A stretch of 60,027 nt of DNA from positions 3,966-63,992 of the forward strand of contig CAYTTB010000007.1 in the NCBI GenBank assembly GCA_964440565.1, written 5' to 3'. This document shows, piece by piece, positions 292 through 23,992 of the stretch; positions within the stretch are counted from its first letter, which is position 1; the number at the start of each line of letters is the position of its first letter. The position numbers and the translations under genes were made by a program. The notes below the pieces were generated by a model. The model saw only the letters and a list, made by a program, of their open reading frames with translations. It ran no database searches and was not told where the DNA came from. This DNA comes from an uncultured Thermoanaerobaculia bacterium (GTDB lineage Bacteria; Acidobacteriota; Thermoanaerobaculia; Thermoanaerobaculales; Sulfomarinibacteraceae).

Positions 292-1716
292 CTACGCCTC
301 CGGCACCACGGTGAGCGCCAGCAGGGTCTCCCGGTACACGGTGGCGACGGCGTGCAGGCCCCCGAGCCCGGCCGCGAGCTCCACCTCGCGGCCGCGCCGG
401 CGCCGCGGTGCGAGGTGGGCCGCGAGGCGCTCGAGCAGGCGGCGGAGGGAGGCGCCCTCGAGGGTCACGCCGGTCTCGCCGAGGGCGGCGTCGAGGGCGA
501 ACGCCTCGAGGAGCCTGTCCGCCTCGGCCTCGAAGAGCCGCGGGCCGCGGAAGAGCTCGAGGCCGAGCAGCCGTCCGTCCGCGAGCGCCGCGATGCCGCA
601 GGTGCCCTCGGGCAGGTCGAGCCGCTCCACGGCGGGACGCACCCGCTCGCGCGCGGCCTCGATGCCGTCCACCAGGGCCTCGGTGGTGGACGCCACGGCC
701 AGGGATGCGAGGCAGTGCCTCACCTCCGTCCACACCTCGGCCTGGCCCGCGTGTTCCGGGCCGTCCGGCCGGCAGGCGGCGCGGGAGCGCACCGCGGCCG
801 GAGCCACCGCCGCGATCCGGAACCGGCGCTCCGCGTCGTGCCACCGGCCCCGCTCCACGCACCGCACCGCGATCCGCTCCGTCCTGCCGGGCTCCACCAC
901 CGCGGGACGGGCCACCACCCGGTCCTGCTTGCCGCCCACCAGGATCACGCCCGGCGGCAGGAACACCGGGACCGGGCCGGTGTTCTCCACCAGGAGCTCG
1001 GGCACCGACCCGTGCTCGTCCACCTCCCGCACGATCACGGTCCCGTCCTCCACCGCCCCGGCCACGGGGCGCACCACCGGGTCCGCCCCGCCGGGGAGCG
1101 AGAGCGGCACCACCGTGAGCCCGTCGGCCTGGATCGCCTCCCCGATCTCCACCGCCTCGAGCGCCCGCCGGGCCGCGGCGGCGGCACGGCGGGGCTCGGC
1201 GGGGGGCCGGCGGGACGCGGCCCGGGGGGCGAGCCGCAGCAGCAGCCGGGTCTCGGGCAGCAGCGGCACCCCGCGCTCCCGCAGCCGGCGCTCGAGCCGG
1301 CGCGCCCTCCGCCGGTCGAGCCGCCCCCCGGCCCACGCGTCGAGCACCTCGGCGTGCGCCGCCTCCGACGGCGCGAGCGGCGGCTCGGGCGGCTCGAGGA
1401 CGGCGCGTTCGCCCTTCGCCGTGAGCGTCACGGCGAGCTCGATGGGCTTGCGGTACCCCGGGCTGCCCCCCGGGAGCACCTCGCCCTCGAGCTCGATCCA
1501 GCCGCGGTCGAGCAGGGAGGCGAGCCAGGCCGCCTCCTCGCGCGGCAGGTACCCGCACCCGTCGCCCGCCTCGTCCAGGACGCGGATCGCGTTGGGGTCG
1601 TGCGGGTTGTCCGGCTCGCGCGCGAGCTCGACGGGCTCTCCCTCCTCGAGCTCGGCCTCGGCGTACCGCAGCCCCACCACGTCCACCACCAGGGTCCCCA
1701 GCTCCGTGCGTTCCAT
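292..1716 (-). CDS. HIRAN domain fused to DUF6569 (ARPP-1 family) domain
   Basis: N-terminal VVGLRY...LAREPDNPHDPNAIRV...GYLPRE is the HIRAN signature. C-terminal SVPELLVENTG..PVFL..G.ILVGGKQDRVV...RCVERGRW matches DUF6569. GGAGGT SD before ATG 1716. Confidence 0.8.
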   Translation of the reverse strand: MERTELGTLVVDVVGLRYAEAELEEGEPVELAREPDNPHDPNAIRVLDEAGDGCGYLPREEAAWLASLLDRGWIELEGEVLPGGSPGYRKPIELAVTLTAKGERAVLEPPEPPLAPSEAAHAEVLDAWAGGRLDRRRARRLERRLRERGVPLLPETRLLLRLAPRAASRRPPAEPRRAAAAARRALEAVEIGEAIQADGLTVVPLSLPGGADPVVRPVAGAVEDGTVIVREVDEHGSVPELLVENTGPVPVFLPPGVILVGGKQDRVVARPAVVEPGRTERIAVRCVERGRWHDAERRFRIAAVAPAAVRSRAACRPDGPEHAGQAEVWTEVRHCLASLAVASTTEALVDGIEAARERVRPAVERLDLPEGTCGIAALADGRLLGLELFRGPRLFEAEADRLLEAFALDAALGETGVTLEGASLRRLLERLAAHLAPRRRRGREVELAAGLGGLHAVATVYRETLLALTVVPEA

Positions 1717-1817
1717 GGACACCTCCCCCGCCGGCGTACCCGGCCCCGGCGCACCGTGCGCCGGGGAGGAGCGCGTGCCCGCACCGGCGGTCGCATGCCC
1801 CCTACCTGGGGCCCGCT

Positions 1818-1836
1818 GCGGACAGGTACGGGCCGC
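1818..1836 (+). promoter_or_regulatory. 19-bp semi-palindromic site, copy 1 (GCGGAC-AGGTACG-GGCCGC)
   Basis: The same motif occurs at 5775, 7223 (inverted) and 12413. Function inferred. Confidence 0.7.
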
Positions 1837-1977
1837 GGGGCGTGGCGACCGCCCATGACGCCGCTCGTGCGAGGGCGACGCGGGTCGGTGGGAGACGCTC
1901 CGGGACGCCGTCCCCTCATCGATGCACGGCGCCGGGGGCCGCCTCGAGCCGCCGCGGAACGGCGGCCGCGCGGGGAC

Positions 1978-2005
1978 TTGACACGCGTTTTTTTTCTCCT
2001 ACGTT
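1978..2005 (+). promoter_or_regulatory. sigma70-like promoter TTGACA-N16-TACGTT with a T8 tract in the spacer
   Basis: Perfect -35 at 1978-1983 and TAnnnT at 2000-2005, upstream of the ORF at 2060. Confidence 0.6.
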
Positions 2006-2059
2006 TCCGCTGGGGGCAACAACCGACCCGTGCCGGCACGGCGAGAAGGAGGAGCACTC

Positions 2060-2260
2060 ATGGGGAGCGGAACGAGGTGGGTGCGGTTCTGGGGTTTGGT
2101 GGCCGCGTCGGCGCTGGCGGTGGCGACGCTCGCGCAACCCGTGGCGTACGCGCTGCGAACACGCTGCGTCCAGTTTCCGGACGGCTCGAGCGTTCACTGC
2201 GACGAGTTCTGCTTCGTGTACCGGGACGACGGATCGTACGCGGGCTGGATCCGCTCCTGA
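2060..2260 (+). CDS. Small secreted Cys-containing peptide (66 aa)
   Basis: Strong SD. Signal peptide ending in AYA, then LRTRCVQFPDGSSVHCDEFCFVYRDDGSYAGWIRS. Confidence 0.7.
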   Translation: MGSGTRWVRFWGLVAASALAVATLAQPVAYALRTRCVQFPDGSSVHCDEFCFVYRDDGSYAGWIRS

Positions 2261-2262
2261 GG

Positions 2263-3381
2263 ATGGAGGCGTCAGCCGTGTTCCGTCGGGTTGCCGTCTC
2301 GGTATCGCTCGCCGTCGCTGTCCTCGGGGCCCGGGTGCCCGCGCTCGCGGCAGGGGAGGTACGGCCCGTTCCGGTGCGAACGTTGCTTCCGGGCCGTGAT
2401 GAGGGCCGCGGCATGCAGTTCGCGTTCGCCGACCGGAAGGGACGGCTGGTCGTTCTCCGTACCGAGCCGCTCGAGACCTGGCGGCTGCAGCGTGACGGGA
2501 GCTGGGAGGGCCCTCGTCCCGCCGGCGATCCCCGAACCGCAGGCCTCTTCGTGCGCGACGCTGCCATGGACGCCTTCGGGGAACGGTTCCTCCTGCTTTC
2601 CGACGAGGATCTGTGGCTCGTGGAAGGGAACCGGTCGCGGGAGCTGCCCCCGTCCCGCTGGATGCCCACCGCGGTGGCGCTCCTGGGCGACGAGCCCGTG
2701 GTGGCTGTGCTGCCCATGGCCGCGGGCACGCCGTTTCCGCCTCGCGCCGGCGGGAACGCGGCGCCGCCGTTCCTCCTGAGGCTCCAGCACGACCGGTGGC
2801 GGGACCTCGTGCCGCGCCCCGCCACCGCCCCCAGCGGTGGGGTGAGAGAGTTGCTGGCGGAGTCCGCGGTGCGGCTCCTGAGTCCCGACCGGCGGACGCT
2901 GTGGGTGGCAGGGGAGTACGAGGGCGGGCTGCGCCGGTACAGCGCAGCGGGCCGCCTGCACGAGCGGTGGGAGCTTCCGGCGGCGTCCGGAGATCGCGAC
3001 GCCTCGGAGCGGGCGAGGGGGAGCGAGCGGTTGCGCGCCGAGCTCGAGGAGTCGGGAGTGGTGCTGGAGGGCGCCGGCGTGGGTGCGATGCCCCGCCGGG
3101 TGCGGGTGCGGGGCCTCGGTGCGGCGAGGGACGGCACGATCTACCTGCTGGTCTCGGGCGACGAGGGGGGCAGCCTCCTCTACCGGCACGATCCCGCGAG
3201 CGGAAGAACGATGCGCTGTGCCGTCGCGTTGGGAGGGGGGGGCCGGACGACCCTCGCGTGGAGCGGCGAGAGGTTGATCATCGCACCGCAGCCCGCGCGG
3301 GAGGCGGTGGTCGCCGTGTCGGGGGAGGATCTCGAGCGCGCGCCGTGGGAGGAGGTGACGCCCGTGGGTGGCGCGCGGTGA
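2263..3381 (+). CDS. Secreted hypothetical protein, beta-propeller-like
   Basis: ATG 2 nt after the peptide stop. Signal peptide, then repeated blade-like segments (DAAMDAFGERFLLL, SPDRRTLWVA, ARDGTIYLLV). Confidence 0.65.
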   Translation: MEASAVFRRVAVSVSLAVAVLGARVPALAAGEVRPVPVRTLLPGRDEGRGMQFAFADRKGRLVVLRTEPLETWRLQRDGSWEGPRPAGDPRTAGLFVRDAAMDAFGERFLLLSDEDLWLVEGNRSRELPPSRWMPTAVALLGDEPVVAVLPMAAGTPFPPRAGGNAAPPFLLRLQHDRWRDLVPRPATAPSGGVRELLAESAVRLLSPDRRTLWVAGEYEGGLRRYSAAGRLHERWELPAASGDRDASERARGSERLRAELEESGVVLEGAGVGAMPRRVRVRGLGAARDGTIYLLVSGDEGGSLLYRHDPASGRTMRCAVALGGGGRTTLAWSGERLIIAPQPAREAVVAVSGEDLERAPWEEVTPVGGAR

Positions 3382-3405
3382 GGGACCGGCGTCGCGCTGG
3401 TGCGG

Positions 3406-4095
3406 TCAGCCCGGGCCGCAGGCGAGGCGAAAGCGCGCGAACAGCTCCCGCGACCAGGTGTCGTCGAGATCCTCGGGGTGCCACTGGACGCCGATGACGG
3501 GGCGGCCGGGCTCGCCGCCCTCCACCGCCTCGATCACCCCGTCGGGAGCTCGCGCCGCGACCCGGAGATCTCCGGGATCGGCGATCCCCTGGTGGTGGCG
3601 GGAGTTCACCTCGAGCTCCTCCGGCAGCCACGCCAGGTGGACGGCTTCCCGGCTGCGCCGGACCGGGTGGCGCGGGAGGTGGCGGGGCCGCCCGTCGTCG
3701 GCGTGGCCGGGCAGGCCGGCTCGCTCGAGGTCCTGGATCAGCCGCCCCCCGTGCGCCACCGCGAGCAGCTGGCACCCGTAGCACACCGCCAGCACGGGAA
3801 GCCCCCGCTCCCGGGCGGCGGCGAGGAGCCGGAGGTCCAGCTCGTCCCGGGCCGGGTCGGTCTCGAGCGTCACCCCCGGCTCGGGCACCGCCCCGTACCG
3901 CCACGGCTCCACGTCCGGCCCGCCGGAAAGCAGCAGCCCGCCCGCTCCCGCGAGGGCGGCCCGCACCGCCTCCTCCGGCGTCGCCGGCGTCACCCAGACG
4001 AGCTCCTCCGGGCGCCCCCCGGCCCGCTCCCACGCCGCGCCGAACCGTTCCTCCTCGAACGGCCGCCTCACGCTCCGCACCGCCAGCACCCGCAC
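3406..4095 (-). CDS. Peptidase C26 / gamma-glutamyl-GABA hydrolase family (class I glutamine amidotransferase)
   Basis: Motifs GLLLSGGPDV.P..YG, PVLAVCYGCQ, VNSRHHQ and GVQWHPE. Confidence 0.9.
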   Translation of the reverse strand: MRVLAVRSVRRPFEEERFGAAWERAGGRPEELVWVTPATPEEAVRAALAGAGGLLLSGGPDVEPWRYGAVPEPGVTLETDPARDELDLRLLAAARERGLPVLAVCYGCQLLAVAHGGRLIQDLERAGLPGHADDGRPRHLPRHPVRRSREAVHLAWLPEELEVNSRHHQGIADPGDLRVAARAPDGVIEAVEGGEPGRPVIGVQWHPEDLDDTWSRELFARFRLACGPG

Positions 4096-4557
4096 CCGGC
4101 CAGTGTAGCGGCGGCGCCCACGCTCCGTGGCCGAGACGGCGGGCTCGCCGGTGAGGCACGCGCGTTCGGGTCCACCGGTGTGATGTGCGAGGGCAAGCCC
4201 GTCGCCGGCCGGTGGAGCGGGCGGACGGGCGGAGCCGGGGTGCCACGGGCCCACGGCACCAGGTTTCCCCGCCCGCGGGGAGCCACGGGCGGGCGGGAAA
4301 GGCAGCGGATCGCCGGGTGATGGAGGCGGCGGGCCGGAGGGACGAGGGGGGATGGGGGCGTGCCCGGGCGGCCTCCCGGAGGGCGAGGCGGCAGCTCGCC
4401 CCTGGGGGCGCGGCGGGCGTGACGGCGCCGGGCGGGGCGGTGCCCGTCACGGGATCGCCACGATTCGCCCCGGCACCGCCACCCGGGTTGCCCGTCCCGG
4501 CCACCTTCAGGTATGACCCTGGTGGGGGAACCGACCAGTTCCGGAAGGAGGATGGCG

Positions 4558-5706
4558 ATGGGAGCGGTGACGAGACGAGCAGGCAGGGTGGTCGGAACGC
4601 TGCTCGCCCTGGCGGCCGCGCCGGCCGTGGCCGCCGCCCAGGGGCTCGCCCCCGAGGTGGTGGCCGCCGACGCGGTGGTGGCCACGCCGGAGGGCGTGAT
4701 CACGGTCCAGGGCGATCTCGTCCGGCTGCTCGACGGCACCGGGCCCTCCTCCCGGACGGTGGCCTCGCTCCGCCTCCCCGCGCGGGCCCGCGTGATCTGG
4801 CGTGCAGGCTCCACGGTGGTGCTCGACTCGGCGGACCCCGCCGCGCCGCTGTACCCGGACATGTACCGGGTGGTGAACCCGGACGCGGAGGGCACCGAAC
4901 CCGCGGACCGGGTGATGGTGGTGGCGCGCGACGGTGCGCTCCACGAGGTCCGCCGGCGGTTCTTCGATTGGGACTACCTCACCTGCGACGGTCTCCGGGT
5001 GGCGCGGCAGGCCGTGGGGCCGCCGGGGGGATGGGCGCTCGACGACCTGCTGACGGGGGCGTTCGTGGACGCGGCGCAGGTGCTCGTGACGCACGAGGAC
5101 GGGACCGAGGGCCCGCCGCGGTTCGTCCAGGTCCCGCAGCCCGCGGGCCCCGGCCGCACGCTGCTGCCGGTGCACGACGTCCTGCTGCTCGAGGACCGCG
5201 AGACCGGGCTCGTGTGGCGGGCCGACGACCGCACGCCGATGATCAGCGGGCTGTGCGCGTCGCCGGACCGGTCGCTGGTGCTGGTGGGGCGGCAGGACGG
5301 GTCGCTCGAGGTGCGGCGGATCGCCGACGGCTCGCTGCTCTGGATGCGCGTGGGCGGCCGGGAGCTGGGCGCCGCGCTGCTCGAGGCGGAGCTGATCGGC
5401 CAGGAGGCGTACCTCGCCATGCCGGCGGATCCCGAGCCCGCGGGGTTCTCCGAGGTGAACACGGTCACGCCGGTCCCCGACGGGTGGCTGGTGTGGTGGA
5501 GCGACGCCGGCACGGCGCCGGCGAGCTGGCTCGAGCACGTGGCGTGCGGCGGGGCGGGGTGTAGGGCGCGGATTCTCCACCCCTCGGTGCTCCGCACCGA
5601 CGCGGCGATCGAGGCTGTGGTGACGGGTTCGGGCTCCTACGCCCTCGACGAGAACCAGGGGCTGCTGGTGCGCGACGCCACCGGCTGGCGGCGCGCGACG
5701 CCCTGA
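4558..5706 (+). CDS. Secreted hypothetical protein (WD40/propeller-like segments)
   Basis: SD AAGGAGG and a signal peptide. The segment SPDRSLVLVGRQDGSLEVRRIADG is WD40-like. Confidence 0.65.
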   Translation: MGAVTRRAGRVVGTLLALAAAPAVAAAQGLAPEVVAADAVVATPEGVITVQGDLVRLLDGTGPSSRTVASLRLPARARVIWRAGSTVVLDSADPAAPLYPDMYRVVNPDAEGTEPADRVMVVARDGALHEVRRRFFDWDYLTCDGLRVARQAVGPPGGWALDDLLTGAFVDAAQVLVTHEDGTEGPPRFVQVPQPAGPGRTLLPVHDVLLLEDRETGLVWRADDRTPMISGLCASPDRSLVLVGRQDGSLEVRRIADGSLLWMRVGGRELGAALLEAELIGQEAYLAMPADPEPAGFSEVNTVTPVPDGWLVWWSDAGTAPASWLEHVACGGAGCRARILHPSVLRTDAAIEAVVTGSGSYALDENQGLLVRDATGWRRATP

Positions 5707-5747
5707 CGCTCCCCCGCCGCCGGGGCGTCCCCGCGGCGCCCCGGCGG
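5668..5747 (+). repeat. 80-bp direct repeat, left copy (gene 3' end + GC hairpin)
   Basis: 76/80 identical to 7052-7131. Encodes VRDA.GWRRATP-stop followed by the hairpin CCGCCGGGGCG..CGCCCCGGCGG. Confidence 0.95.
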
Positions 5748-6001
5748 TCGCATGCCCCCTACCTGGGGCCCGCTGCGGACAGGTACGGGCCGCGGGGCGT
5801 GGCGACCGCCCATGACGCCGCTCGTGCGAGGGCGACGCGGGTCGGTGCGAGGCGCTCCGGGACGCTCCCCTCCTCGATACACCGCGCCGAGGGCCGCCCG
5901 GCTGCCGCGGAACGCAGGCGACGCGGGGACTCGACAGGCGTTTTTCCCCTTTCCCCTGCGCGCAACGACCGACCCGTGCCGGCACGGCGAGAAGGAGGAG
6001 C
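5741..6001 (+). repeat. Duplicated intergenic leader, copy B (contains 19-bp site copy 2 at 5775-5793)
   Basis: See copy A. The promoter hexamers are degenerate in this copy (TCGACA). Confidence 0.95.
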
Positions 6002-6002
6002 G

Positions 6003-6743
6003 ATGCGACGGAAGGACATCCCGGCCGTGGTGCGAGAGCTCGTGATCTTTGTGGCCGTGACGTGCGCTGCGCCCGCCGTGCGGCCGGCTCTCGCCCTTCT
6101 CGAGGGCTGATCTCTCTCTCTCGATGGCTCGACAAGGGTGCGGGCCGAGGAGCTGGGTGGGGGATCGTACCTCGTGACGTACGAGGGCCCCGAGGGCACG
6201 CTCGGGATCCTCGTCGCCCCGGGCTTGCTCGAGGCGGGCCCGTTCTCGGTTCGGATCGCGGGCGCGGGCACGGGCACCGCGGGTGAGTACGTGCTGGCCG
6301 TGGAGGCGCCATCGGGGACCGCCTCCGCGCGGGTGGTGTACGATCCGACCCGTGTGGCGGCGGGTTGTGACGGTCCGGCGCGGCTTGACGACGGCGCGGC
6401 CGTGGGCCAGCTGCTCGACGGGTTCGCGCGCTCCCGCGAGGGGATCCTCCTGCGCGAGGCGAGCGCCTTCATCCTCGAGCAGCTGGAGATCTCCGAGGGT
6501 ATGCTGCGGGATATGTCGCGCGCGGCAGCGTGCGAGTACCTCGGCCCGCCGGAGGGCGGTCCGCCGAACGACCTGTTCAGCTGGACGTGCCTGGGAGCGG
6601 TGTTCAACCAGGTCGCGGCGGGTGCGGCGATGGTCGCTGGCTGCGGTACGCCGGCGTGCGGACCGGCATACGGCTGGTGCTGCGCGTCCGGCGTGGCGTG
6701 GTACACGTCGGCGTTCATCGGAACGTGGACATCCTGTTCGTGA
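6003..6743 (+). pseudogene. Secreted precursor with a Cys/Gly/Ala-rich bacteriocin-like C-terminus, interrupted by an in-frame TGA (6108-6110)
   Basis: The signal-peptide ORF from 6003 and ORF 6138-6743 are in the same frame, separated by a single TGA. C-terminus: WTCLGAVFNQVAAGAAMVAGCGTPACGPAYGWCCASGVAWYTSAFIGTWTSCS. Confidence 0.6.
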
Positions 6744-6767
6744 GGGGCCGATGGGACAGGAGGGCGC

Positions 6768-7031
6768 ATGGCGTGGTGGGAGATCGTGACGGCGCTCGGT
6801 GCGCTCGCGTTCGGGCTCGAGCGGGTGGTGCACGCTGGCTCCCGGAGAGCGGGCGCAGGGACCACGGTGGTCGGGATCGCGCTTCTCGCAGCCGGTGTCG
6901 TGGCCGTCGCGCGGGGGGTGGCCCCGATCTCGGCGCGGAGCGCCCTCTGGGGTCTGACCGGTATCGTGTGTACCCTCGCGGCGGGTCTGCACCTGGCGCC
7001 GCCGTCCACGGGCGACTCCGGGGAGAGCTGA
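6768..7031 (+). CDS. Small 3-TM membrane protein (candidate immunity protein)
   Basis: 87 aa with three hydrophobic stretches. AGGAGG SD directly after the Cys-rich gene. Confidence 0.6.
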   Translation: MAWWEIVTALGALAFGLERVVHAGSRRAGAGTTVVGIALLAAGVVAVARGVAPISARSALWGLTGIVCTLAAGLHLAPPSTGDSGES

Positions 7032-7051
7032 CGCCGGGGGCGGACGGCGGC

Positions 7052-7131
7052 GTCCGCGACGCCGCGGGCTGGCGGCGCGCGACGCCCTGACGCTCCCCCG
7101 CCGCCGGGGCGTCCCCGCGGTGCCCCGGCGG
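7052..7131 (+). repeat. 80-bp direct repeat, right copy
   Basis: Orphan duplicate of the 3' end of gene 4558-5706. Confidence 0.95.
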
Positions 7132-7139
7132 CGGCCGAT

Positions 7140-7177
7140 CCCATGCCGCGTTGTGGCGGCGGCCGTCCCCGGCCGCC
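7140..7177 (+). repeat. REP-like palindromic element (second copy inverted at 53862-53899)
   Basis: 36/38 identical to the other copy. GTGG followed by the hairpin GGCGGCCG-TCCC-CGGCCGCC. Confidence 0.75.
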
Positions 7178-7222
7178 GTGGGCGGGGACGAGGGCGCCGC
7201 GGCGCCGGACCCCGGCCGGGGT

Positions 7223-7241
7223 GCGGACCGTACCTGTCCGC
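7223..7241 (-). promoter_or_regulatory. 19-bp site, copy 3 (inverted; perfect arms GCGGAC-N7-GTCCGC)
   Basis: Reverse complement is GCGGACAGGTACGGTCCGC. On the + strand it reads TGTCCG-N10-CACCCT towards gene 7274. Confidence 0.7.
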
Positions 7242-7273
7242 TGCCCGGCCCACCCTGGGGGGTGGAGGTCACC

Positions 7274-7630
7274 ATGAGGAGGACACGGATCGCCACCGTG
7301 CTCGCCCTCGCCGGGGCGCTCGCCGCGGTCACGGCCCTCGCCTGTTCCGGGATGGGCTGGGTCGAGGGCTGGTGGGTGGACCGCGACCGGGACCGGGTGG
7401 AGGCGACGTTCGGGCTCGCCGTGGACTGCGGCGGCGAGGCGACGCCGTGCGCCGGGGTGCTGGTGTGGGAGGTCACCTTCTCCGACGGCACCGCCCCCGT
7501 GCGCCGCCAGGGGAGCCTCGCCTGGAGCGCCACCGGCCGGGAGGTGCTCACCCTTACCGGCTCCCTGGCCATACCCGACGACGCGCCGGTCCTCGCCGTG
7601 CGCGTCGTCCGCACCACCTGCCAGCCCTGA
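7274..7630 (+). CDS. Small secreted protein or lipoprotein, beta-rich
   Basis: GGAGG SD, signal peptide ending ALAC (lipobox-like), and additional Cys residues. Confidence 0.7.
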   Translation: MRRTRIATVLALAGALAAVTALACSGMGWVEGWWVDRDRDRVEATFGLAVDCGGEATPCAGVLVWEVTFSDGTAPVRRQGSLAWSATGREVLTLTGSLAIPDDAPVLAVRVVRTTCQP

Positions 7631-7726
7631 CCGCCCCGCACGCGTGGGGTCGGCCGCGGGTTGAACGTGTCGTCGGGCCCCATGAGAATAGTGCGAGGAT
7701 GGACGATCACCTCAGCGCCTGGACCC

Positions 7727-8149
7727 CGCACGCTGTGGCTCCTGCACCGGGAAGGCTACGAGGTCGGGCGCTACATCAGCCTCGAGCGCATCGTCGAGGA
7801 GACGAAGGAGAGCTACTACGACGCCCTCCAACGGTCGTCCCAGGGCTGGCACGAGGGCGAGCACGATCTCGTCCCGTGGCTCGAGTACTTCCTGGGCGTG
7901 ATGCTGCTCGAGGCGTACCGCCGCTTCGAGGAGCGCACGGGGGAGCTGGCGAGCCGGTACGGAGCGAAGACGGCACAGGTCCTCGCCGCGTTCGAGAAGC
8001 TCCCCGAGGAGTTCCGATATCAGGACCTCGAACGAGCCTGCCCGAACGTGAGCCGGCCGACCTTCCACAGGGTGCTGCGGCGCCTGAAGCACGAAGGGCG
8101 CGTCGCCTGCGTACGGGGTGGACGCGACGCCCTGTGGAGGAAGCTGTGA
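7727..8149 (+). pseudogene. C-terminal fragment of a Fic-family protein (with wHTH tail)
   Basis: GYEVGRYISLERIVEETKESYYDALQRSSQGWHEG.HD..PWLEYFLG is the segment that follows the Fic motif. The HPFxDGNGR motif and the N-terminus are absent. Confidence 0.75.
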
Positions 8150-8321
8150 CCGCGAGGGTGCCTGGCGAACGGCTTCGGGGACACGTTAATGTGACCAAGA
8201 ACGTCTACTTGAGGCGCCGACCGTGGAGAGCGAGGCCGACGGGTGAATGAACCGGCGAATCGGGTGACAGTGGGGCGGCCTGGTCTCGGCGTATCGCTGC
8301 AGCCAGCGGAAGGAGTCACGC

Positions 8322-8582
8322 ATGGGACGGCAGCGTCGCCTGTTCGACGGGCTGGAATCGGTGACCAGGAATCCGGGCCCCGTCGAGTGGCTCATCGAGG
8401 GGCGGAGTGTGAAGATGTTCCGCACCGAGGCCGTCCGCGCCGGCTTCGAGGCCGCCTACGACGCCGGGGACTGCCAGACCATCGTCGTCGTCGCCCGGAA
8501 GCTGCCGGAGAAGGTCCTCCAGGAGGACGAGAAGCGGCTCATGTACGACGACGTCGCGATGATGAGGATGGGGGAGGGCTGA
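8322..8582 (+). pseudogene. C-terminal remnant of a BREX-3 PglXI-like DNA methyltransferase
   Basis: FRTEAVRAGFEAAY...TIVVVARKLPEKVLQEDEKRLMYD resembles the C-terminus of methylases that precede BrxHII-type helicases (recalled, not searched). Confidence 0.6.
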
Positions 8583-8584
8583 CG

Positions 8585-9790
8585 ATGCCGCACATCCAGG
8601 AGCTCACGATCAAGAACTACCGAGTACTGCGAAACGTCACCTTCAAGGACTTGCAACCGTTCAACGTGCTGCTGGGTCCGAACGGCTGCGGAAAGTCCAC
8701 CGTGTTCGACGTTCTCGGGTTCCTCGGCGAGTGCCTGACCGTGGGCGTTCGGAAGGCCCTGGAAACCCGCGGGAGGCTCGCCGAGCTGCGCTCGCGCGGC
8801 AGCCAGGAGTCCGTCGTGATCGAGTTGAAGTACCGCGAATCGGACTTCGGTGCCCCGCAGTGGCAGCGTACGCCCCTCATCACGTATCACCTCGAGATCG
8901 GCGAGGTGTACGGTCGCGCGTCGATTCGGCGCGAGTTCCTTAAGTGGAGGCGCGGCCGTTACGGTAAGCCATTCAAGTTTCTGGACCTCACCGACGGGAC
9001 GGGCTACGTTGTCACCGGCGAACAGCCGGAGGATCGCGACGAGAGACGTGCTGTCACGCTCGAGGACGTCACCGTCCCCGCCATCGCGACGCTCGGGCAG
9101 CTCGCCGAGAACCCGCGGGTGGCGAGCCTGCGTCGTTTCATCGAGAGCTGGCACCTGTCGTATTTCATCCCGGACCGGGCCCGCGGCATCCCGGAGGCCG
9201 GAGCACACGAGCACCTCTCGCGCACCGGTGAGAACCTGGCCAACGTGGTGCAGTACCTCCACGAGCAGCACCCGGACGTGTTGGATCGGATCCTCTCGCG
9301 CATGTCGGAGCGGATTCCAGGGCTCGAGACGATCCGCGCGGAGCGGACGATCGACGGCCGGCTCGTGCTCCGCTTCAAGGACGGTCCCTTCGAGGACCCC
9401 TTCCTGTCGCGCTTCGTGTCCGACGGCACGCTGAAGATGTTCGCCTACCTCGTGCTTCTCATGGACCCCGATCCCCCCGCCCTGCTCTGCATCGAGGAGC
9501 CGGAGAACGGCCTGCACCCCAAGCTGTTGCACGTGCTGGCCGAGGAGCTTCGGGCCCACGCCAAGGGAGCGTTCTCCACCAAGGGAAGTCAGGTGCTCGT
9601 CTCCAGCCACGCGCCGTACTTCGTCGACGCGCTTCGACCCGAGGAACTCTGGATCATGCAACGGGGAGAAGATGGCTTCGCCACAGTCGAGCGTGCCGAC
9701 CGCATCAAAGGGGTGCCTGAGTTCGTCCAGGAGGGCGCCGTATTGGGGCGATTGTGGATGGAGGACCTTCTTCGGGGAGGGAATCCCTGA
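8585..9790 (+). CDS. ABC-type AAA ATPase (AAA_21/AAA_15-like)
   Basis: Walker A GPNGCGKS, signature SDGTLKM, Walker B IEEPENGLHP, H-loop SSHAPY. Confidence 0.92.
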   Translation: MPHIQELTIKNYRVLRNVTFKDLQPFNVLLGPNGCGKSTVFDVLGFLGECLTVGVRKALETRGRLAELRSRGSQESVVIELKYRESDFGAPQWQRTPLITYHLEIGEVYGRASIRREFLKWRRGRYGKPFKFLDLTDGTGYVVTGEQPEDRDERRAVTLEDVTVPAIATLGQLAENPRVASLRRFIESWHLSYFIPDRARGIPEAGAHEHLSRTGENLANVVQYLHEQHPDVLDRILSRMSERIPGLETIRAERTIDGRLVLRFKDGPFEDPFLSRFVSDGTLKMFAYLVLLMDPDPPALLCIEEPENGLHPKLLHVLAEELRAHAKGAFSTKGSQVLVSSHAPYFVDALRPEELWIMQRGEDGFATVERADRIKGVPEFVQEGAVLGRLWMEDLLRGGNP

Positions 9791-10380
9791 TGCACGTCGA
9801 GGTCTTCGTCGAGGAGCCGTCGGCGAAGGAAGCCCTGGACCGCCTGTTGCCCAAGATGGTGGGCGCGCGACACAGCTTCCAGGTCCACGCCTTTCGCGAC
9901 AAGCAGGAGCTATTGGAGGAGATACCCAAGCGGCTGATGGCCTATTCGAGGTGGATGCCCGCGGACTGGCGCATCGTGGTGCTGGTCGACGAAGATCGGG
10001 AGGATTGCAAGGCGTTAAAGGGTCGGCTGGTCGAAGCTGCCGAGGACGCGGGCCTGTCGGGCCGGGTCCTGTGCCGGATCGTCGTCGAAGAGCTGGAAGC
10101 CTGGTTCTTCGGGGACGTGGAGGCCCTGCGCGCCGCATACCCGAGGATTCCCAAGACACTCCATCGCAAACGACCGTACCGAAACCCGGACGCGATCGAG
10201 GGCGGCACGTGGGAGGCCCTCGACCGCCTGCTCCGTCGCCACGGCTACCGGGCGGGCCTCGTCAAGACCGAGGCGGCCCGTCGGATCGCCCAACACATGG
10301 ATCCCGAGCGCAACCGCTCGCACAGCTTCCAAGTGTTCCGGTGCGGCTTGGCGCGTTTGCTCCTCCGGGAAGCGCGGTGA
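9790..10380 (+). CDS. DUF4276 family (TOPRIM-like) protein
   Basis: Motifs VFVEEPS, VVLVDEDREDC, IVVEELEAWFFGD and NRSHSFQVF. TGATG coupling to the ATPase. Confidence 0.85.
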   Translation: MHVEVFVEEPSAKEALDRLLPKMVGARHSFQVHAFRDKQELLEEIPKRLMAYSRWMPADWRIVVLVDEDREDCKALKGRLVEAAEDAGLSGRVLCRIVVEELEAWFFGDVEALRAAYPRIPKTLHRKRPYRNPDAIEGGTWEALDRLLRRHGYRAGLVKTEAARRIAQHMDPERNRSHSFQVFRCGLARLLLREAR

Positions 10381-11470
10381 ACGAGGACCGGAGCGGCACC
10401 TGGGCCTTCAGCCTCGACCACGGCGAGCCATGCCGCGTCCTGGAGCGCGAGCGGCTCTGGGGGGAGGAGACCGTGCTCGTGTGGCTGCCGGGACGTCGGG
10501 CGGCCGTCCGGGTGCCTGCGCGACGGGTGGTGCCCCTCGAGGAGGCGGACTGCTGGACACTGGCCCGCATCGCGTTCACGGCCGCGGCCGCACGCATCGC
10601 GGACGCGCTCGAGCGCGACGTCCTGGTCGCGCCATTGGAGTGCCCCGTCATCCCCTTGCCGCACCAGATCCTGGCGCTCGAGCGGGCCATCTCGGGGGAC
10701 CGGGTCCGCTATCTGCTCGCCGACGAGGTCGGCCTCGGCAAGACCATCGAGGCCGGGCTCATCCTGCGCGAGCTGAAGATGCGGGGGCTGGTGCGGCGCG
10801 TGCTGGTGGTGGCGCCGGCCGGGCTCTGCCAGCAGTGGGTGGCGGAGATGCGCCGGCACTTCGACGAGGTCTTCCAGCTCGTCCTGCCCAAGGACCTGGA
10901 GATGCTGCGGCGCATCTCCGCCGTCGCGGGTCACGGGTCGGTTCGGCGCAGTGGCCCGTGCGTCCGACTCGCGACCCGAGCCCCGAGACCCGGGACCACC
11001 GCCGACCAACCCCTGGAAGGTGTTCGATCAGGTCGTGGTGCCTATGGACTCGGTCAAACCGATGGACCGGCGGCGGGGTTGATCGGCGGAGCAGGTCGCC
11101 CGCTACAACCGCGAGCGGTTCGAGGACCTGGTCACGGCCGGCTGGGACCTCATCATCGTGGACGAGGCGCACCGCCTCGCGGGGAGCACGGAGAACGTGG
11201 CGCGCTATCGCCTGGGCGAGGCGCTCACGCAGGCTGCCCCGTACCTGCTCTTGCTTTCGGCCACGCCCCACCAAGGCAAGACGGACGCCTTCCGCCGGCT
11301 CGTGAGTTTCCTCGACCCGGACGCCCTGCCGGACGACGAGTCGGTCCACCGCGAAAACGTGGCGCCCTACGTCATCCGCACCGAGAAGCGCCGGGCCATC
11401 GACGTGGATGGCAACCCGCTGTTCAAGCCCCGGCGCACCGAGCTCGTGCGGGTGCGATGGGGCGAGGCGG
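10377..11470 (+). pseudogene. SNF2/DEAH helicase (BrxHII-like), frameshifted, nonsense-interrupted and truncated
   Basis: Motifs PLPHQI, YLLADEVGLGKTIEAG, DEAH and LLLSATPHQG. Frame change at ~10930-11007, TGA at 11080-11082, and the second RecA domain is missing. Confidence 0.85.
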
Positions 11471-11490
11471 CCGATGGCCGCCTCGCGTCC

Positions 11491-11518
11491 AAGGTCGAAA
11501 GTCCAAAGTCCAAAGTCG
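11491..11518 (+). repeat. Heptamer tandem repeat (AA[A/G]GTC[C/G])x4
   Basis: aaggtcg-aaagtcc-aaagtcc-aaagtcg at the helicase truncation point. Confidence 0.8.
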
Positions 11519-11645
11519 CAACGCACGAAGGCCCGGGCCGGGGTAGTTTTCGAAGGCCGGTCCAGTGCCTTCAATCACTTGCGTTCCGAACTGTCGAACT
11601 TGGCCGGCCACCGTGGCGCGGTGCTCCGGCACCGGCACGGGCGGG

Positions 11646-12335
11646 TCACTCGGGTGCCACGGCGCCCTCCTCCCGGAGCCCGGCGAGCACGGTGCGCTTG
11701 GTGGCCTCGTACTCCTTCGGGGTGACGAGGCCCTGCCGGAGCAGCTCCCACAGGTCCACGATCCGGCGGTCGGGAGGGATCTCCCCCGGGGCGGGCGGGG
11801 AGCCGGAGGCGAGCTCGGCGGTGACCGTCCTCCGCAGGACCGCGGCCTCCTCGGGGGAGAGGCCGCCGGCCTCGGCGACCTCCCGGATCGCGGCGAGCCG
11901 GTTCCGGATCCGATCGGCCGGCCTCGCGGGCGCCGCGGCCGCCGCGGTGCCGGGGGGCAGCGGGTCGAGCTCCACGTGGAGCGTCTCGGGGACCAGACGC
12001 CACTGGGCTCCGGTGAGGGCGTCCACGCCCCAGCCGATGAGGCCGCCGGCGATCAGGTTGCCCGCCACCGCTCCGGAGAGCACCCGGTGGATCACCCGCT
12101 GCTCCTCGCGGTAGCCGTCCTTGCGCAGGACCACGAGGTGGGAGCGCTTCCGCTTGAGGTTCGGGGACACGGGGGTCTTGCCGATCTTCTCGCCGTCCAC
12201 CCACACGTCGGCTCCCGAGGGATCGGACGAGATCGAGACCACCTGCCCCGAGCCGTGCACGATGGAGGCACAGCCGGAGCCCACGAGCGCGAGCGCGGCA
12301 GCCGCGGCCAGGACCGTGATCCGTACTGCGTGCAT
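11646..12335 (-). CDS. Lipoprotein with a PEGA domain and tandem SHOCT-like C-terminal motifs
   Basis: Lipobox GSGC. PEGA motif ISSDPSGADVWVDG..IGKTP...KDGY. SHOCT-like GGLSPEEA and QGLVTPKEYEATKRTVL. Confidence 0.85.
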   Translation of the reverse strand: MHAVRITVLAAAAALALVGSGCASIVHGSGQVVSISSDPSGADVWVDGEKIGKTPVSPNLKRKRSHLVVLRKDGYREEQRVIHRVLSGAVAGNLIAGGLIGWGVDALTGAQWRLVPETLHVELDPLPPGTAAAAAPARPADRIRNRLAAIREVAEAGGLSPEEAAVLRRTVTAELASGSPPAPGEIPPDRRIVDLWELLRQGLVTPKEYEATKRTVLAGLREEGAVAPE

Positions 12336-12412
12336 CGAGACCTCCTCTCTGGTTTTCCGGCGGACGGGCCGCCCGCCGGGGTGAGCGTTCGCGGGACATC
12401 CTGGCCCCGGCC

Positions 12413-12431
12413 GGGGACAGGTACGGGCCGC
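12413..12431 (+). promoter_or_regulatory. 19-bp site, copy 4 (GGGGAC-AGGTACG-GGCCGC)
   Basis: Lies between the divergent PEGA and HNH genes. The minus strand reads TGTCCC-N10-CAGGAT. It abuts TATGCT (12434-12439) upstream of the HNH gene. Confidence 0.7.
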
Positions 12432-12458
12432 GGTATGCTCGTGGGGAGGACCGGACCG

Positions 12459-13397
12459 ATGGACCCGGCAGCGGCAGCGCGGGACGCCAGGGTGCGGCTC
12501 GCCGCCTTCGAGTGGCTCGAGCGGCAGGTGGGAGAGCACGGTGACGTGCTGGACTGGGCGGTGCTGGCCCTGGGGTTCACGTACCGCGGCCAGCGGGTGC
12601 CGCTGGTCTCGCAGCAGGGGATCTTCAAGCCGAGGGTGCTCCCGGAGATGCCGCTCTCGATCCGGACCTCGCCGGACGGACCGTACGACGACCACTTCGG
12701 CCCGGACGGCCTGCTGCGGTACGCCTACCGCGGCACGGATCCGGCGCACCCGGACAACGTCGCGCTGCGGAGGGCGATGCGGGCGCGGGTGCCGCTGGTG
12801 TACTTCCACGGGGTGGTGCGGGGAAGGTACCTCGCGGTGTGGCCGGTGTTCGTGGTGGGCGACGATCCGGGGTCGCTCACCTTCGTCGTGGCGGCGGACG
12901 ATCCCGTGGCGCTGGGCGGGCTGCGGCGGGTGGTCAGCGGCGAGGGGCAGCCGGTGGCGGGCTCTCCGGAGGAGCTCGGGCGCCGGCGGTACGTGACGGC
13001 GACCGTCCGCCGGCGGCTGCACCAGCGCGGCTTCCGGGAGCGGGTGCTCGCGGCGTACCGCGGGCGGTGCGCGCTGTGCCGGCTCGGGCACCGGGAGCTG
13101 CTCGAGGCGGCGCACATCGTGCCGGAGGGCGAGCCGGGCGGCGAGCCGGTGGTGCCCAACGGGCTCGCGCTGTGCGCGCTCCACCACGCCGCGCTGGACC
13201 GGTACCTCATCGGCGTGCGCCCCGACCACGTGGTGGAGGTCCATCCCGCGGTTCTCGAGGAGACCGACGGCCCGATGCTGCGCCACGGGCTGCAGGCGCT
13301 CCACGGCTCCCGCCTGCGGGCGCCGCGCTCGCCCCGGACCCGGCCCGATCCCCATCGCCTGGCGTGGCGGTACGAGCGGTTCCTCGAGGCGGTGTAG
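12459..13397 (+). CDS. HNH endonuclease with an SRA-like N-terminal domain (putative type IV restriction enzyme)
   Basis: HNH part: RLHQRGFRERVLAAYRGRCALC...LEAAHI...NGLALCALHH. N-terminal PYDD...YAYRGTD...DNVALRRAM...PLVYF. Confidence 0.85.
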   Translation: MDPAAAARDARVRLAAFEWLERQVGEHGDVLDWAVLALGFTYRGQRVPLVSQQGIFKPRVLPEMPLSIRTSPDGPYDDHFGPDGLLRYAYRGTDPAHPDNVALRRAMRARVPLVYFHGVVRGRYLAVWPVFVVGDDPGSLTFVVAADDPVALGGLRRVVSGEGQPVAGSPEELGRRRYVTATVRRRLHQRGFRERVLAAYRGRCALCRLGHRELLEAAHIVPEGEPGGEPVVPNGLALCALHHAALDRYLIGVRPDHVVEVHPAVLEETDGPMLRHGLQALHGSRLRAPRSPRTRPDPHRLAWRYERFLEAV

Positions 13398-13421
13398 CGT
13401 CGAGGCGGCGCGGGGGCCGGT

Positions 13422-14408
13422 TCACCCCGCGGGCGGGCGGTAGCGGGCGGCCCCGCGGGCGAGCTCCGAGGCGACCTCGGCGCGCAGCGCCTCCGGGGCG
13501 AGGACCTCGCAGAGGGAGCCCCAGCCCAGCACCCACGGCAGGAGCTCGCGCCACGAGGTGACGGTGAGCTCGAGGCGGGCGGAGCCGTCCGGGAGCTCCT
13601 CGAGCCGCTGGGAGGGGTGCCAGCGGGTCTCGCGGACGCGCGGCGCCGCCTCGGGGACGAACCGGAGGACCACGGTCTCGGGCTCCTCGTCCGCGATCCA
13701 CACCCCCCAGGCGCGGTCGAGGCGGGCGAGGAGGTCGCGAAGCGGCGGCGCCTCGAACTGGTCGGCCGTGAGCGCGGCACGGCGGACCCGTTCGATCTTG
13801 AGCACGCGCAGCGCCCCGGGCGGGTGGGCCTCGCCGATGGCGTACACGGCGGAGCCCACGGCGGAGGGCTCGAGCAGGTAGGGGCGGAACCGGTAGCGGC
13901 GGGTGGAGGGGCTCGTGCGCGGGGCGTACTCGAGCTCCACCTCGCGGCCGAGGATCCAGCCGCGGGCGAGGACGGAGAACGCCCGGGAGAACGGGCTGGG
14001 GCGGGCCGCGTCGCGCCGGGCGAGGTGCCGGAAGGCGGGGCCGAGCTCCTCGGGGACCACCTCGGCCAGCGCGGCGAGCGCCCCGTGCACGGCCGGGTTC
14101 GGCTCGTCGGCGGAGCGCTCGAGCAGGCGGCCGGCGAGGTAGAGCGCCGCGGCCTCCTCGAGCTGGAGCCGCACCGGGGGCACCTCCATCCGCGCCGCCT
14201 CGACCAGCCGCCACCGGTGTCCGTCGTGGCTCACCGGCAGCCGCCCGCTCTCGGAGAGCTCCGCGATGTAGCGGCGCACCGTGCGCGGCGCCACGCCGAG
14301 CCGGCCGGCGAGCTCCTCGGTGGTCCAGCGGCGGCGCGGGCTCGCCCAGAACAGCCGCTGCAGCTCCAGGAGCCGCGAGGCCTTGGTCAGGGCGTCGGCG
14401 AACACCAC
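13422..14408 (-). CDS. WYL-domain transcriptional regulator (wHTH-WYL-WCX)
   Basis: HTH ELAGRLGVAPRTVRRYI. WYL part PYLLEPS...YAIG...LKIERV. WCX part ETRWHPSQ...WVLGWGS.CEVLAP..LR. Confidence 0.92.
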   Translation of the reverse strand: MVFADALTKASRLLELQRLFWASPRRRWTTEELAGRLGVAPRTVRRYIAELSESGRLPVSHDGHRWRLVEAARMEVPPVRLQLEEAAALYLAGRLLERSADEPNPAVHGALAALAEVVPEELGPAFRHLARRDAARPSPFSRAFSVLARGWILGREVELEYAPRTSPSTRRYRFRPYLLEPSAVGSAVYAIGEAHPPGALRVLKIERVRRAALTADQFEAPPLRDLLARLDRAWGVWIADEEPETVVLRFVPEAAPRVRETRWHPSQRLEELPDGSARLELTVTSWRELLPWVLGWGSLCEVLAPEALRAEVASELARGAARYRPPAG

Positions 14409-14510
14409 GGGCGCCTCCCCCGCCAGTGTAGGCCATCGCCCCCGTCGCCCCGCCGGGCGCCGCCGGGTGCGCTGGCGGCGGCCGGCGTCCCCGCGCCGGG
14501 CCCGGCGCTT

Positions 14511-14528
14511 GACACCCCCGGGGGTGTC
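14511..14528. promoter_or_regulatory. Perfect 18-bp palindrome GACACCCCCGGGGGTGTC, candidate WYL operator
   Basis: Sits in the divergent region upstream of the WYL gene and overlaps TTGACA (14509-14514). Confidence 0.55.
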
Positions 14529-14565
14529 GGCCACCCTGGGGCGGGCCTCGGCCCGGGAGGTGGGC

Positions 14566-23916: not shown

Positions 23917-23992
23917 GCGGGCGTAACTCAGTTGGTAGAGTGTCAGCTTCCCAAGCTGAAAGTCGCGGGTTCGAATCCCGTCGCCCGCTCCA
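23917..23992 (+). tRNA. tRNA-Gly (CCC)
   Basis: 76-nt cloverleaf, anticodon arm TCAGC-TTCCCAA-GCTGA, GTTCGAATC T-loop, encoded CCA. Confidence 0.97.

Follow-up and report, generated by a model that had tools for sequence, protein, structure and literature searches.

A GTAC-centred 19-bp motif upstream of defence genes in an uncultured Sulfomarinibacteraceae bacterium, probably the operator of a WYL regulator

The window analysed here is a stretch of 60,027 nt from an uncultured Thermoanaerobaculia bacterium of the family Sulfomarinibacteraceae (positions 3966-63992 of contig C7 of the assembly G000, which has 3.46 Mb in 166 contigs, ~75% GC, and is 95% complete). It carries four copies of a 19-bp motif, G(C/G)GGACAGGTACGG(G/T)CCGC, together with a gene (13422-14408) for a regulator with helix-turn-helix (HTH), WYL and WCX domains. 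A scan of the whole genome for the motif and the genes behind it gave eight sites, of which seven are independent and all seven lie upstream of starts. Judging from sequence and gene context, the motif is probably the operator of this WYL regulator and, granted this, activation of the genes behind it is clearly favoured over repression. The predicted regulon most likely consists mostly of anti-phage defence systems.

The four window copies match the motif without mismatches at 1818(+), 5775(+), 7223(-), and 12413(+), exactly where the initial annotation had placed them; 0.05 matches per window are expected by chance and none of 100 shuffles reached four. The gene map puts all four between genes and a window-wide scan allowing up to two mismatches found no other match to the 19-mer pattern, so that the annotation was also right in calling all copies intergenic and the core 45 kb free of them. 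The 6-bp inverted arms that it described are perfect only in the 7223 copy, the others agreeing at five of six positions (GCGGCC / GTCCGC); in the same way, GGAC-N7-GTCC is perfect at 7223 and has one arm mismatch in the other six independent copies. Since 1818 and 5775 share a duplicated region, the window holds three independent copies, in accordance with the three unrelated flanks reported earlier. A weight matrix of the 19-mer separates the eight genomic sites (25.7-29.5 bits) from the next best match (19.9 bits) and from a reversed-genome control (20.7 bits). Four of the eight are outside the window, at C16:498, C16:12819, C121:100, and C77:13572, and the motif is therefore not confined to the accessory island that the window copies had seemed to punctuate.

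The motif is specific to the G000 genome. Its 15-mer, GGACAGGTACGGNCC, occurs seven times in G000, in none of 40 relatives from the same family and order, and as single matches in 5 of 400 genomes of the class (one being the unpublished genome G044), fewer than the ~20 of 400 hit, by our own count, by a reversed control pattern. With the 15-mer at chance level in both sets, no orthologous regulon is directly comparable. The exact 19-mer was also found in metagenome contigs as 16 single matches with unrelated flanks and 52-75% GC, mostly within long open frames; we take these as chance matches, in a collection that may leave out records of the G000 genome. Two 12-mer copies (C15:7109 and C26:20659) were likewise treated as chance because they are inside open reading frames (ORFs) and have no arms.

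All seven independent copies are between genes and, when read in the opposite sense as GCGGCCCGTACCTGTCCGC, turn their TGTCC half toward a gene or RNA start. The sites, with the distance to what lies downstream, are as follows.

Window 1818..1836, minus strand: operator copy 1, reading GCGGCCCGTACCTGTCCGC on that strand (29.5 bits) and pointing left to the HIRAN-ARPP-1 gene, ATG 101 nt downstream
Window 5775..5793, minus strand: operator copy 2, a duplicate of copy 1 within the copied divergent regulatory region 5737-6001
Window 7223..7241, plus strand: operator copy 3, GCGGACCGTACCTGTCCGC (28.8 bits), the sole copy with perfect 6-bp inverted arms; putative lipoprotein gene 7274, 32 nt
Window 12413..12431, minus strand: operator copy 4, GCGGCCCGTACCTGTCCCC on that strand (28.3 bits), pointing left to the PEGA lipoprotein gene, 77 nt
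C16:498: 119-aa ORF, 21 nt; in the opposite direction there is no gene start
C77:13572: Hma-like helicase gene, 32 nt
C16:12819: DUF932 gene, ~100 nt
C121:100: cas9 leader, ~600 nt to the anti-repeat of the tracrRNA

Between independent copies, conservation is limited to the 19-mer plus a short piece of sequence downstream of it. The hexamer nAnnnT follows exactly 9 nt past the 19-mer in four of the seven (CACCCT, CAGGAT, GACGCT, and GAGAGT; background 0.0166, P = 2.5e-6). For the window the earlier reading TGTCC(G/C)-N10 followed by CAGGTA, CACCCT, or CAGGAT is correct, the -10-like hexamers being:

1803..1808, minus strand: CAGGTA, 9 nt after copy 1, with A at position 2 and with A instead of T at position 6
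7251..7256, plus strand: CACCCT, 9 nt after copy 3
12398..12403, minus strand: CAGGAT, 9 nt after copy 4

In place of a -35 hexamer there is CCGTAC. Such -10 elements are plausible in this organism, because CACCCTG also stands after a canonical TTGACA-N17 in front of an epimerase gene (14509-14538). A simple scan for sigma-70 promoters and terminators gave none of either in 1500-13000, a result that is uninformative for non-canonical promoters. At C16:498, C121:100, and 1818/5775 the hexamer is followed, at a distance of exactly 6 nt, by a start codon. The frame at 1818 was rejected as a leaderless gene, being an upstream ORF out of frame with HIRAN, and so was the one at C121, where the GC content at third codon positions (GC3) is 0.70 and the frame is non-coding. 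Only the start behind C16:498 (C16:538; GC3 0.95) looks, from its composition, like a real leaderless gene.

The link to the WYL gene comes largely from relatives. WYL homologues were found in 20 of the 40 relatives, 16 of them with 50-65% identity over the full length. Across ten loci with WYL orthologues (130,623 nt), a pattern derived from G000 (arms plus GTAC centre) matches three times, always 65-151 nt past the WYL stop. By eye and with a generic palindrome detector, a 19-bp palindrome with a GTA centre was recognized just past the WYL gene in nine related acidobacterial genomes (for example TCGGCCC-GTACT-GGGCCGC, GGGGCAC-GTACT-GTGCCCC, and GCGGACA-GTACT-TGACCGC); these palindromes are built as 7+5+7 with zero to two mismatches. 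The hexamer nAnnnT stands exactly 9 nt beyond the palindrome in all nine (TAGATT, TACCTT, TACAGT, TATGCT, and GACAAT among them; background 0.027, P = 8e-15), in a test whose criterion was taken from G000 and whose orientation was set by the strand of the WYL gene. Pooling these with the G000 copies gives 13 of 16 operators with the hexamer at this distance. The detector is permissive, with 138 matches in G000 or about one per 25 kb, and useful only in combination with position. Among 77 loci of named genomes, 7 of its 18 matches are within 250 nt past the WYL stop, a zone that makes up 4.8% of the sequence (0.86 expected, P = 1.1e-5). One pick of a GAC-N7-GTC detector in G011, a repeated 19-mer (L028:2985 and 4095), was rejected as it is inside duplicated coding sequence.

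What follows the operator in these relatives varies. Four loci have a cas3 homologue after the WYL orthologue, and three of them (G011, G036, and G040) have the operator and homologues of cas5 and cas7 as well, these identities being based on tblastn between loci and on N-termini read by eye; no operator was seen at the fourth, L061. The gene behind the operator in G031 is a PEGA homologue, as at 12413, and apart from this no synteny with window genes was found around the WYL orthologues.

The regulator itself is the following gene.

13422..14408, minus strand: HTH-WYL-WCX regulator of 328 aa (Pfam WCX 6e-20, WYL 4e-5 and above its cut-off, HTH_11)

The WCX dimerisation domain (PF25583) scores 71.7 bits (6e-20) and the WYL domain (PF13280) 23.9 bits for a cut-off of 21.8, or 25.9 bits in the genome search. 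The N-terminal winged HTH is matched by HTH_11 (4e-6, above the cut-off) and by HTH_PafC (1e-5, below it); in the structure model it shows helices at 30-37 and 41-54 plus a hairpin, and the recognition helix PRTVRxY is invariant in 11 aligned orthologues. The genome search gave two WYL matches, the second being a 147-aa protein without HTH on another contig, so that 13422-14408 is the only HTH-WYL-WCX gene found in the genome. Its best PDB sequence match is DriD (8TP8/8TPK; 1.5e-7 to 8TP8 over the full length, 22-24% identity), followed by PafC (6.7e-5), and at E <= 0.01 this search returned neither CapW nor BrxR. Foldseek ranks DriD (8e-16) and PafBC (2e-13) before CapW (1e-7) and BrxR (8e-7). 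The regulator is thus closer to DriD than to PafBC.

From these data we infer binding of the protein to the sites, activation rather than repression, and single-stranded DNA (ssDNA) as the signal. The promoters would form a class in which an operator at about -40 to -22 is followed, after 9 nt, by an nAnnnT -10 hexamer, without a usable -35. A dimeric regulator, if analogous to DriD and PafBC, would sense ssDNA arising from phage attack, restriction, or DNA damage through its WYL domain and, on binding the operator, would recruit RNA polymerase and so substitute for the -35 contact. Seven units would then be switched on jointly: the tracrRNA-cas9-cas1-cas2-array locus on C121, the small ORF and type I restriction-modification (R-M) system with Abi_C on C16, the Hma-like helicase-methylase operon on C77, the DUF932 gene on C16, and, in the window, HIRAN-ARPP-1, the putative lipoprotein gene with a unit maybe reaching HEC-01, and the PEGA lipoprotein gene. 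The initial annotation had proposed a nucleic-acid-sensing WYL activator co-inducing a DNA-end-binding protein and envelope proteins. Its view of the motif as an operator or promoter element of the WYL regulator finds support in the position, orientation, -10 spacing, comparative genomics, and DriD/PafBC geometry; the regulon as now predicted is wider, genome-wide, and defence-dominated, and the regulator is nearer DriD than the PafBC model that it had used.

Of the off-window contigs, C121 carries a complete CRISPR-Cas locus of type II in the order operator (100-118), tracrRNA anti-repeat, cas9, cas1, cas2, and array. The anti-repeat (713-748) is on the cas9 strand just upstream of cas9 and is complementary to the repeat at 32 of 36 positions; cas9 has HNH_4, RuvC_III, and Cas9_a domains, and the array (5199-5890) has 10 or more 36-nt repeats. 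The left part of the operator recurs as a 14-nt copy inside this cas9 at 3247, where ~0.3 matches are expected by chance. Behind C16:498 follow a small ORF and then the genes for HsdM, Abi_C, and HsdR (type I R-M), and the site on C77 heads an operon of a HmaA-like SNF2 helicase (PADLOC 1120 bits), a protein of no named family, a second SNF2 helicase, a NYN protein, and a MmeI/Eco57I-type methylase. C16:12819 precedes the DUF932 gene. Three of the off-window operators are 75-500 nt from contig ends, always with the end on their upstream side (C16:1-500, C121:1-100, and C77:13591-13649), which could reflect strain variation or repeats in defence regions. There are also two weak look-alikes, C22:12714 (L038 ~3714-3732; 19.9 bits) before an SbcD/SbcC-like pair, with TAGGCT 8 nt on, and C15:45627 (L039 ~3627-3645; 18.0 bits) before an AddB-like PD-(D/E)XK nuclease gene, with a good -10 hexamer. 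Neither scores above the reversed-genome control, and we regard a DNA-repair arm of the regulon made of these two as possible.

Several observations speak against a WYL operator acting as an activator site. The near-identity of the copies, four independent ones being the same at 19 of 19 positions, exceeds what is usual for binding sites, and since 20 of the 40 relatives have a WYL homologue and not the G000 motif, the specificity must have drifted. The enrichment over 77 loci involves some circularity, four of those genomes having been used to shape the detector; in the loci new to it, 2 of 10 matches are in the zone with 0.47 expected (P = 0.078 for all 67 loci, 0.036 for the 13 acidobacterial ones), and none of 54 more distant loci, mostly Chloroflexota at ~40% identity, has a match there. 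In three of the seven G000 sites there is no nAnnnT exactly 9 nt on (CAGGTA and CACCTC, both off at position 6, and C16:12819, which fits at 8 nt), and as none of the seven hexamers starts with T these are weak -10 elements. The structure model is only moderate (pLDDT 71.6, pTM 0.41, TM ~0.3 to every match), so that the greater closeness to activators rests on local similarity. Finally, no operator was found before the WYL gene itself.

An explanation with the same protein and operator, which we consider unlikely although it fares better than the remaining ones, is that of a repressor of the BrxR/CapW type that sits over the -35 region and leaves when it binds ssDNA, the units being thereby de-repressed. 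The WYL regulators of defence systems characterised so far (BrxR, CapW, and Vibrio cholerae proteins) act as repressors that come off when ssDNA binds (PMC9122601, PMC11662680, and PMC13622015). With its centre near -31, the site would also keep the polymerase away, and the fold matches to CapW and BrxR are significant (1e-7 to 1e-6). However, DriD and PafBC rank six to eight orders of magnitude above them, and with CCGTAC, no recognisable -35, and weak -10 elements a repressor would find little basal promoter activity to act on. The published BrxR operators, with 10-11-bp arms, a 5-bp spacer, and a position downstream of the -10 (PMC9122601), are unlike those seen here.

It is quite improbable that the motif is a promoter or operator for another factor, either an alternative sigma or an HTH protein such as the SoFic-like winged HTH at 7661-8149, with the WYL gene as a mere neighbour. 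The assignment to the WYL protein was made from sequence, its gene adjoins only one of the seven sites, and the independent re-test of the WYL linkage is weak (P = 0.04-0.08), all of which this alternative would accommodate. Yet related palindromes are found directly past WYL orthologues in nine genomes whose neighbourhoods are otherwise different, their palindromic shape suits a dimeric HTH protein and not a sigma factor, and the registers GAC-N7-GTC and TGTC-N12-(-10) match two solved WYL-promoter complexes (PMC13004042 and PMC8635444).

Even less credit can be given to the second proposal of the initial annotation, in which the copies are shufflon-like crossover sites where a site-specific recombinase inverts or excises defence or secreted-protein cassettes. 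The short inverted arms around an invariant asymmetric core would suit such sites, as would the inverted copies 5775(+) and 7223(-), 1.4 kb apart in a region full of duplications, and the nearness of three off-window copies to contig ends. But in a check for inversion or deletion at the copies on the contigs of four public runs (X1-X4, from three studies, X1 and X2 being from microbial-mat samples with this organism), none of the 15 joints listed of 78 falls at 1818, 5775, or 7223, in contigs that drop rare variants, and two strains (X1 record 8 and X3 record 23) cross 12413 unbroken. The contig breaks coincide with duplications longer than 31 nt (1890-2026, 5712-5972, and 7096-7410). In the 95%-complete assembly there are only two tyrosine recombinases (PF00589; on C1 and C9) and no serine recombinase (PF00239), and none appeared among the ~40 ORFs scanned on motif-bearing contigs. 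A fixed 9-nt spacing to the -10 and a constant orientation to starts would be unexpected of recombination sites, and recombining 5775 with 7223 would have no effect, the upstream halves being identical. With no joint at these three copies among those listed, few recombinases, and the fixed -10 spacing there is little room for crossover sites, and the proposal is left without support. A weak joint 12416->15381 (side of 22 nt, 37 foreign letters between; X3 and X4) probably comes from another organism or a repeat.

The idea of a REP-like or RNA hairpin element (a terminator or RNA-protein site) scattered in accessory DNA is scarcely tenable in spite of the palindromic look, the intergenic location, and the good folding of the 7223 copy (z = -2.5 and -2.8), since there are only eight copies in 3.46 Mb, for the other four of five copies tested neither strand folds better than shuffles (z -0.85 to +0.60), which indicates that sequence and not a hairpin is conserved, the arm mismatch is conserved and not compensated, no terminator-like site was found in 1500-13000, and Rfam at gathering thresholds gave nothing at the sites and only a tRNA at 23917 in the whole window.

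Most characterised WYL regulators control only the neighbouring system, and the coordination of many defence systems in bacteria is an open question. A WYL operator-promoter regulon as predicted here is nearest in design to DriD of Caulobacter crescentus, a WYL activator of an SOS-independent damage response whose ssDNA-bound form recruits the polymerase (PMC13004042, PMC10853764, and PMC9186387). The DriD site, ATACGAC-N7-GTCGTAT, covers the -35 position of promoters without a -35 element and keeps its distance to the -10 constant, and its centre is conserved and read indirectly (PMC13004042 and PMC10853764). Both regulators share the winged HTH, helical bundle, WYL, and WCX architecture, DriD being the best PDB match by sequence and fold, and both have a pseudo-palindromic GAC-N7-GTC over the -35 position, no -35, and a constant distance to the -10, compared here by its constancy and not by nucleotide count. 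In contrast, the arms differ (ATACGAC/GTCGTAT vs. GCGGCC/GTCCGC), as does the centre (an AT-rich tract vs. GTAC); DriD targets repair and division genes (didA, recA, recJ, dnaG, and bapE), not defence, and has a site at its own promoter, where none was found here. PafBC of mycobacteria recognizes tGTCgg(N10)tA(N3)T through a -26 element read at GTC (PMC8635444). It is the second-best fold match (2e-13), its promoters are without -35 and activated by ssDNA, and the promoter-proximal half of our motif is in the same register (TGTCC(G/C)-N10-nAnnnT, in four of seven copies; PMC8635444). However, positions 5-6 of the element do not agree and no -10 here begins with T. PafBC consists of two paralogues, encoded by adjacent HTH-WYL genes, that pair as a heterodimer and read one half-site, whereas here there is one HTH-WYL-WCX gene and relatives have full palindromes, and PafBC serves ~150 damage-response genes in Actinobacteria, compared to seven or eight sites in an acidobacterium.

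The functional precedent, by analogy, is DdaA of Moraxellaceae (Acinetobacter), a WYL activator with the motif CGWCA-N5-TGWCG before repair genes, a type I R-M system, and CRISPR-Cas (PMC12392091). As is proposed here, DdaA acts as one WYL activator through a palindromic motif before unlinked R-M and CRISPR-Cas genes, and it raises immunity under DNA damage (PMC12392091). The DdaA regulon is centred on core repair genes (recA, uvrA, and ssb), whereas the seven strong sites here precede accessory and defence genes, and repair-type genes (SbcCD-like and AddB-like nucleases) have only the two weak, statistically unsupported sites. The two regulators belong to different phyla and, by description, to different WYL clades. 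BrxR and CapW are also winged HTH-WYL-WCX proteins beside defence systems and are released by ssDNA, but they are repressors, usually dedicated to the adjacent system, and much weaker fold matches (1e-7 to 1e-6); BrxR has two boxes within one island (PMC9122601), and V. cholerae has one WYL repressor per system, without cross-talk (PMC13622015). The kind of regulator is thus already defined by DdaA, DriD, PafBC, and BrxR. New here are the phylum and clade, the 7+5+7 operator with its GTAC centre, a set of predicted targets that is almost purely defensive and includes a type II CRISPR locus with tracrRNA and cas9, and a visible evolutionary spread, relatives having one operator next to the WYL gene and G000 having seven. 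The locus would be the second independent case after DdaA, in Acidobacteriota, and its eight sites and one regulator make a small, well-defined, and directly testable set.

More tentatively, and as something we hold possible rather than probable, a single ssDNA-sensing WYL activator might serve as master alarm for most of the defensome, with near-identical operator-promoter cassettes derived from one ancestral WYL-adjacent operator and placed by promoter capture before horizontally acquired systems. The ancestral operator would drive type I-C cas genes or a PEGA lipoprotein gene, as in the relatives, and the cassettes would have come to front systems of unrelated origins: tracrRNA-cas9, type I R-M, the Hma-like operon, HIRAN-ARPP-1, and possibly HEC-01. 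If this were true, promoter capture would be a route by which incoming defence genes are wired into the alarm circuit of the host. A family of ~85-aa proteins (VGKTI(T/A)AVV...WQL.L.F.D..YELY), the first ORF past a WYL operator in three genomes, would then be a recurrent first cistron. Its members are:

L028:8647-8910: G011, before cas3
C16:538-897 (= L008:538-897): G000, before hsdM
L040:3154-3273

A decayed copy is in the C121 cas9 leader (L009:140-470; E = 0.0068). At E <= 1e-3 a profile search of the family gave 547 cluster representatives. The family has no match in Pfam or PADLOC, nor do 10 relatives run against each of the two, and a word-indexed search returned only the query. Its look-alikes in the Atlas are unnamed, some of them from phages, with a score of 0.90 that makes them a weak lead.

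The genes around the window copies, several of which belong to the predicted units, are listed below.

292..1716, minus strand: HIRAN and ARPP-1 gene (Pfam ARPP-1 6e-58, HIRAN 6e-21)
7274..7630, plus strand: putative lipoprotein or secreted protein gene, the first past copy 3, with a signal-peptide-like N-terminus by eye
7661..10380, plus strand: further same-strand genes after 7274 (Pfam and PADLOC), namely the next four
7661-8149, plus strand: SoFic-like winged HTH gene
8322-8582, plus strand: ORF
8585-9790, plus strand: HEC-01A (PADLOC 3.5e-157)
9790-10380, plus strand: HEC-01B (PADLOC 8e-82)
11646..12335, minus strand: PEGA-domain lipoprotein gene (PEGA 4.7e-10), starting MHAVRITVLAAAAALALVGSGC, with ribosome-binding site (RBS) GAGAGGAGG
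12459..13397 (start 12436 or 12459), plus strand: HNH_2 endonuclease gene (PADLOC 'HNH' 1.3e-19)

Copy 1 is flanked by the HIRAN-ARPP-1 start (ATG 1716, minus strand, preceded by GGGGGAGG) and a small plus-strand ORF at 2060. This intergenic region is duplicated, 1780-1908 being equal to 5737-5865 at 98% and ~276 nt at 89%; the duplication stops at the common RBS and the plus-strand ORFs beyond it are unrelated. Copy 2 starts 69 nt past the stop of the ORF 4513-5706 and, since it points into the 3' end of that ORF, probably arose as a side effect of the duplication. At 5668-5747 and 7052-7131 there is a direct repeat of 80 nt (95%) that covers the last 12 codons and a GC-rich palindrome of two otherwise different plus-strand ORFs, with stops at 5706 and 7090, and belongs to the same patchwork of duplications in the island.

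Copy 3 ends 32 nt before the ATG at 7274, and a Pfam scan of the 7274-7630 product gave no match. From the gene order, the 7274 transcription unit may extend to HEC-01, with a 172-nt gap at 8150-8321 on the way and GC falling to 65%. In run X3, from a divergent strain, depth is ~7.5 over 8545-10146 and at least 50 elsewhere, so that HEC-01A/B may be missing from the X3 strain; the low GC of this region (65%) fits a recent acquisition.

Among the relatives, two ~34-nt repeats with a ~34-nt spacer are directly past the WYL operator and before cas3 in G036 (L029:8337-8441), and may represent a CRISPR-like mini-array within the promoter region. In G035 (L030), a ~100-nt GC-rich element with many repeats (CGGCCGGCCAGCGGCCGGCCGCTACATT...) surrounds the WYL orthologue at 900-1400, 8640-8760, 10060-10580, and 13350-13820; it is REP-like and unrelated to the operator.

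Copy 4 is probably the ancestral WYL-adjacent operator, because G031 has WYL, operator, and PEGA directly in this order. In G000 the HNH_2 gene, starting 5-28 nt from the distal edge of copy 4, interrupts that order and separates the WYL stop from the operator, and it is a probable insertion into the regulator-operator junction.

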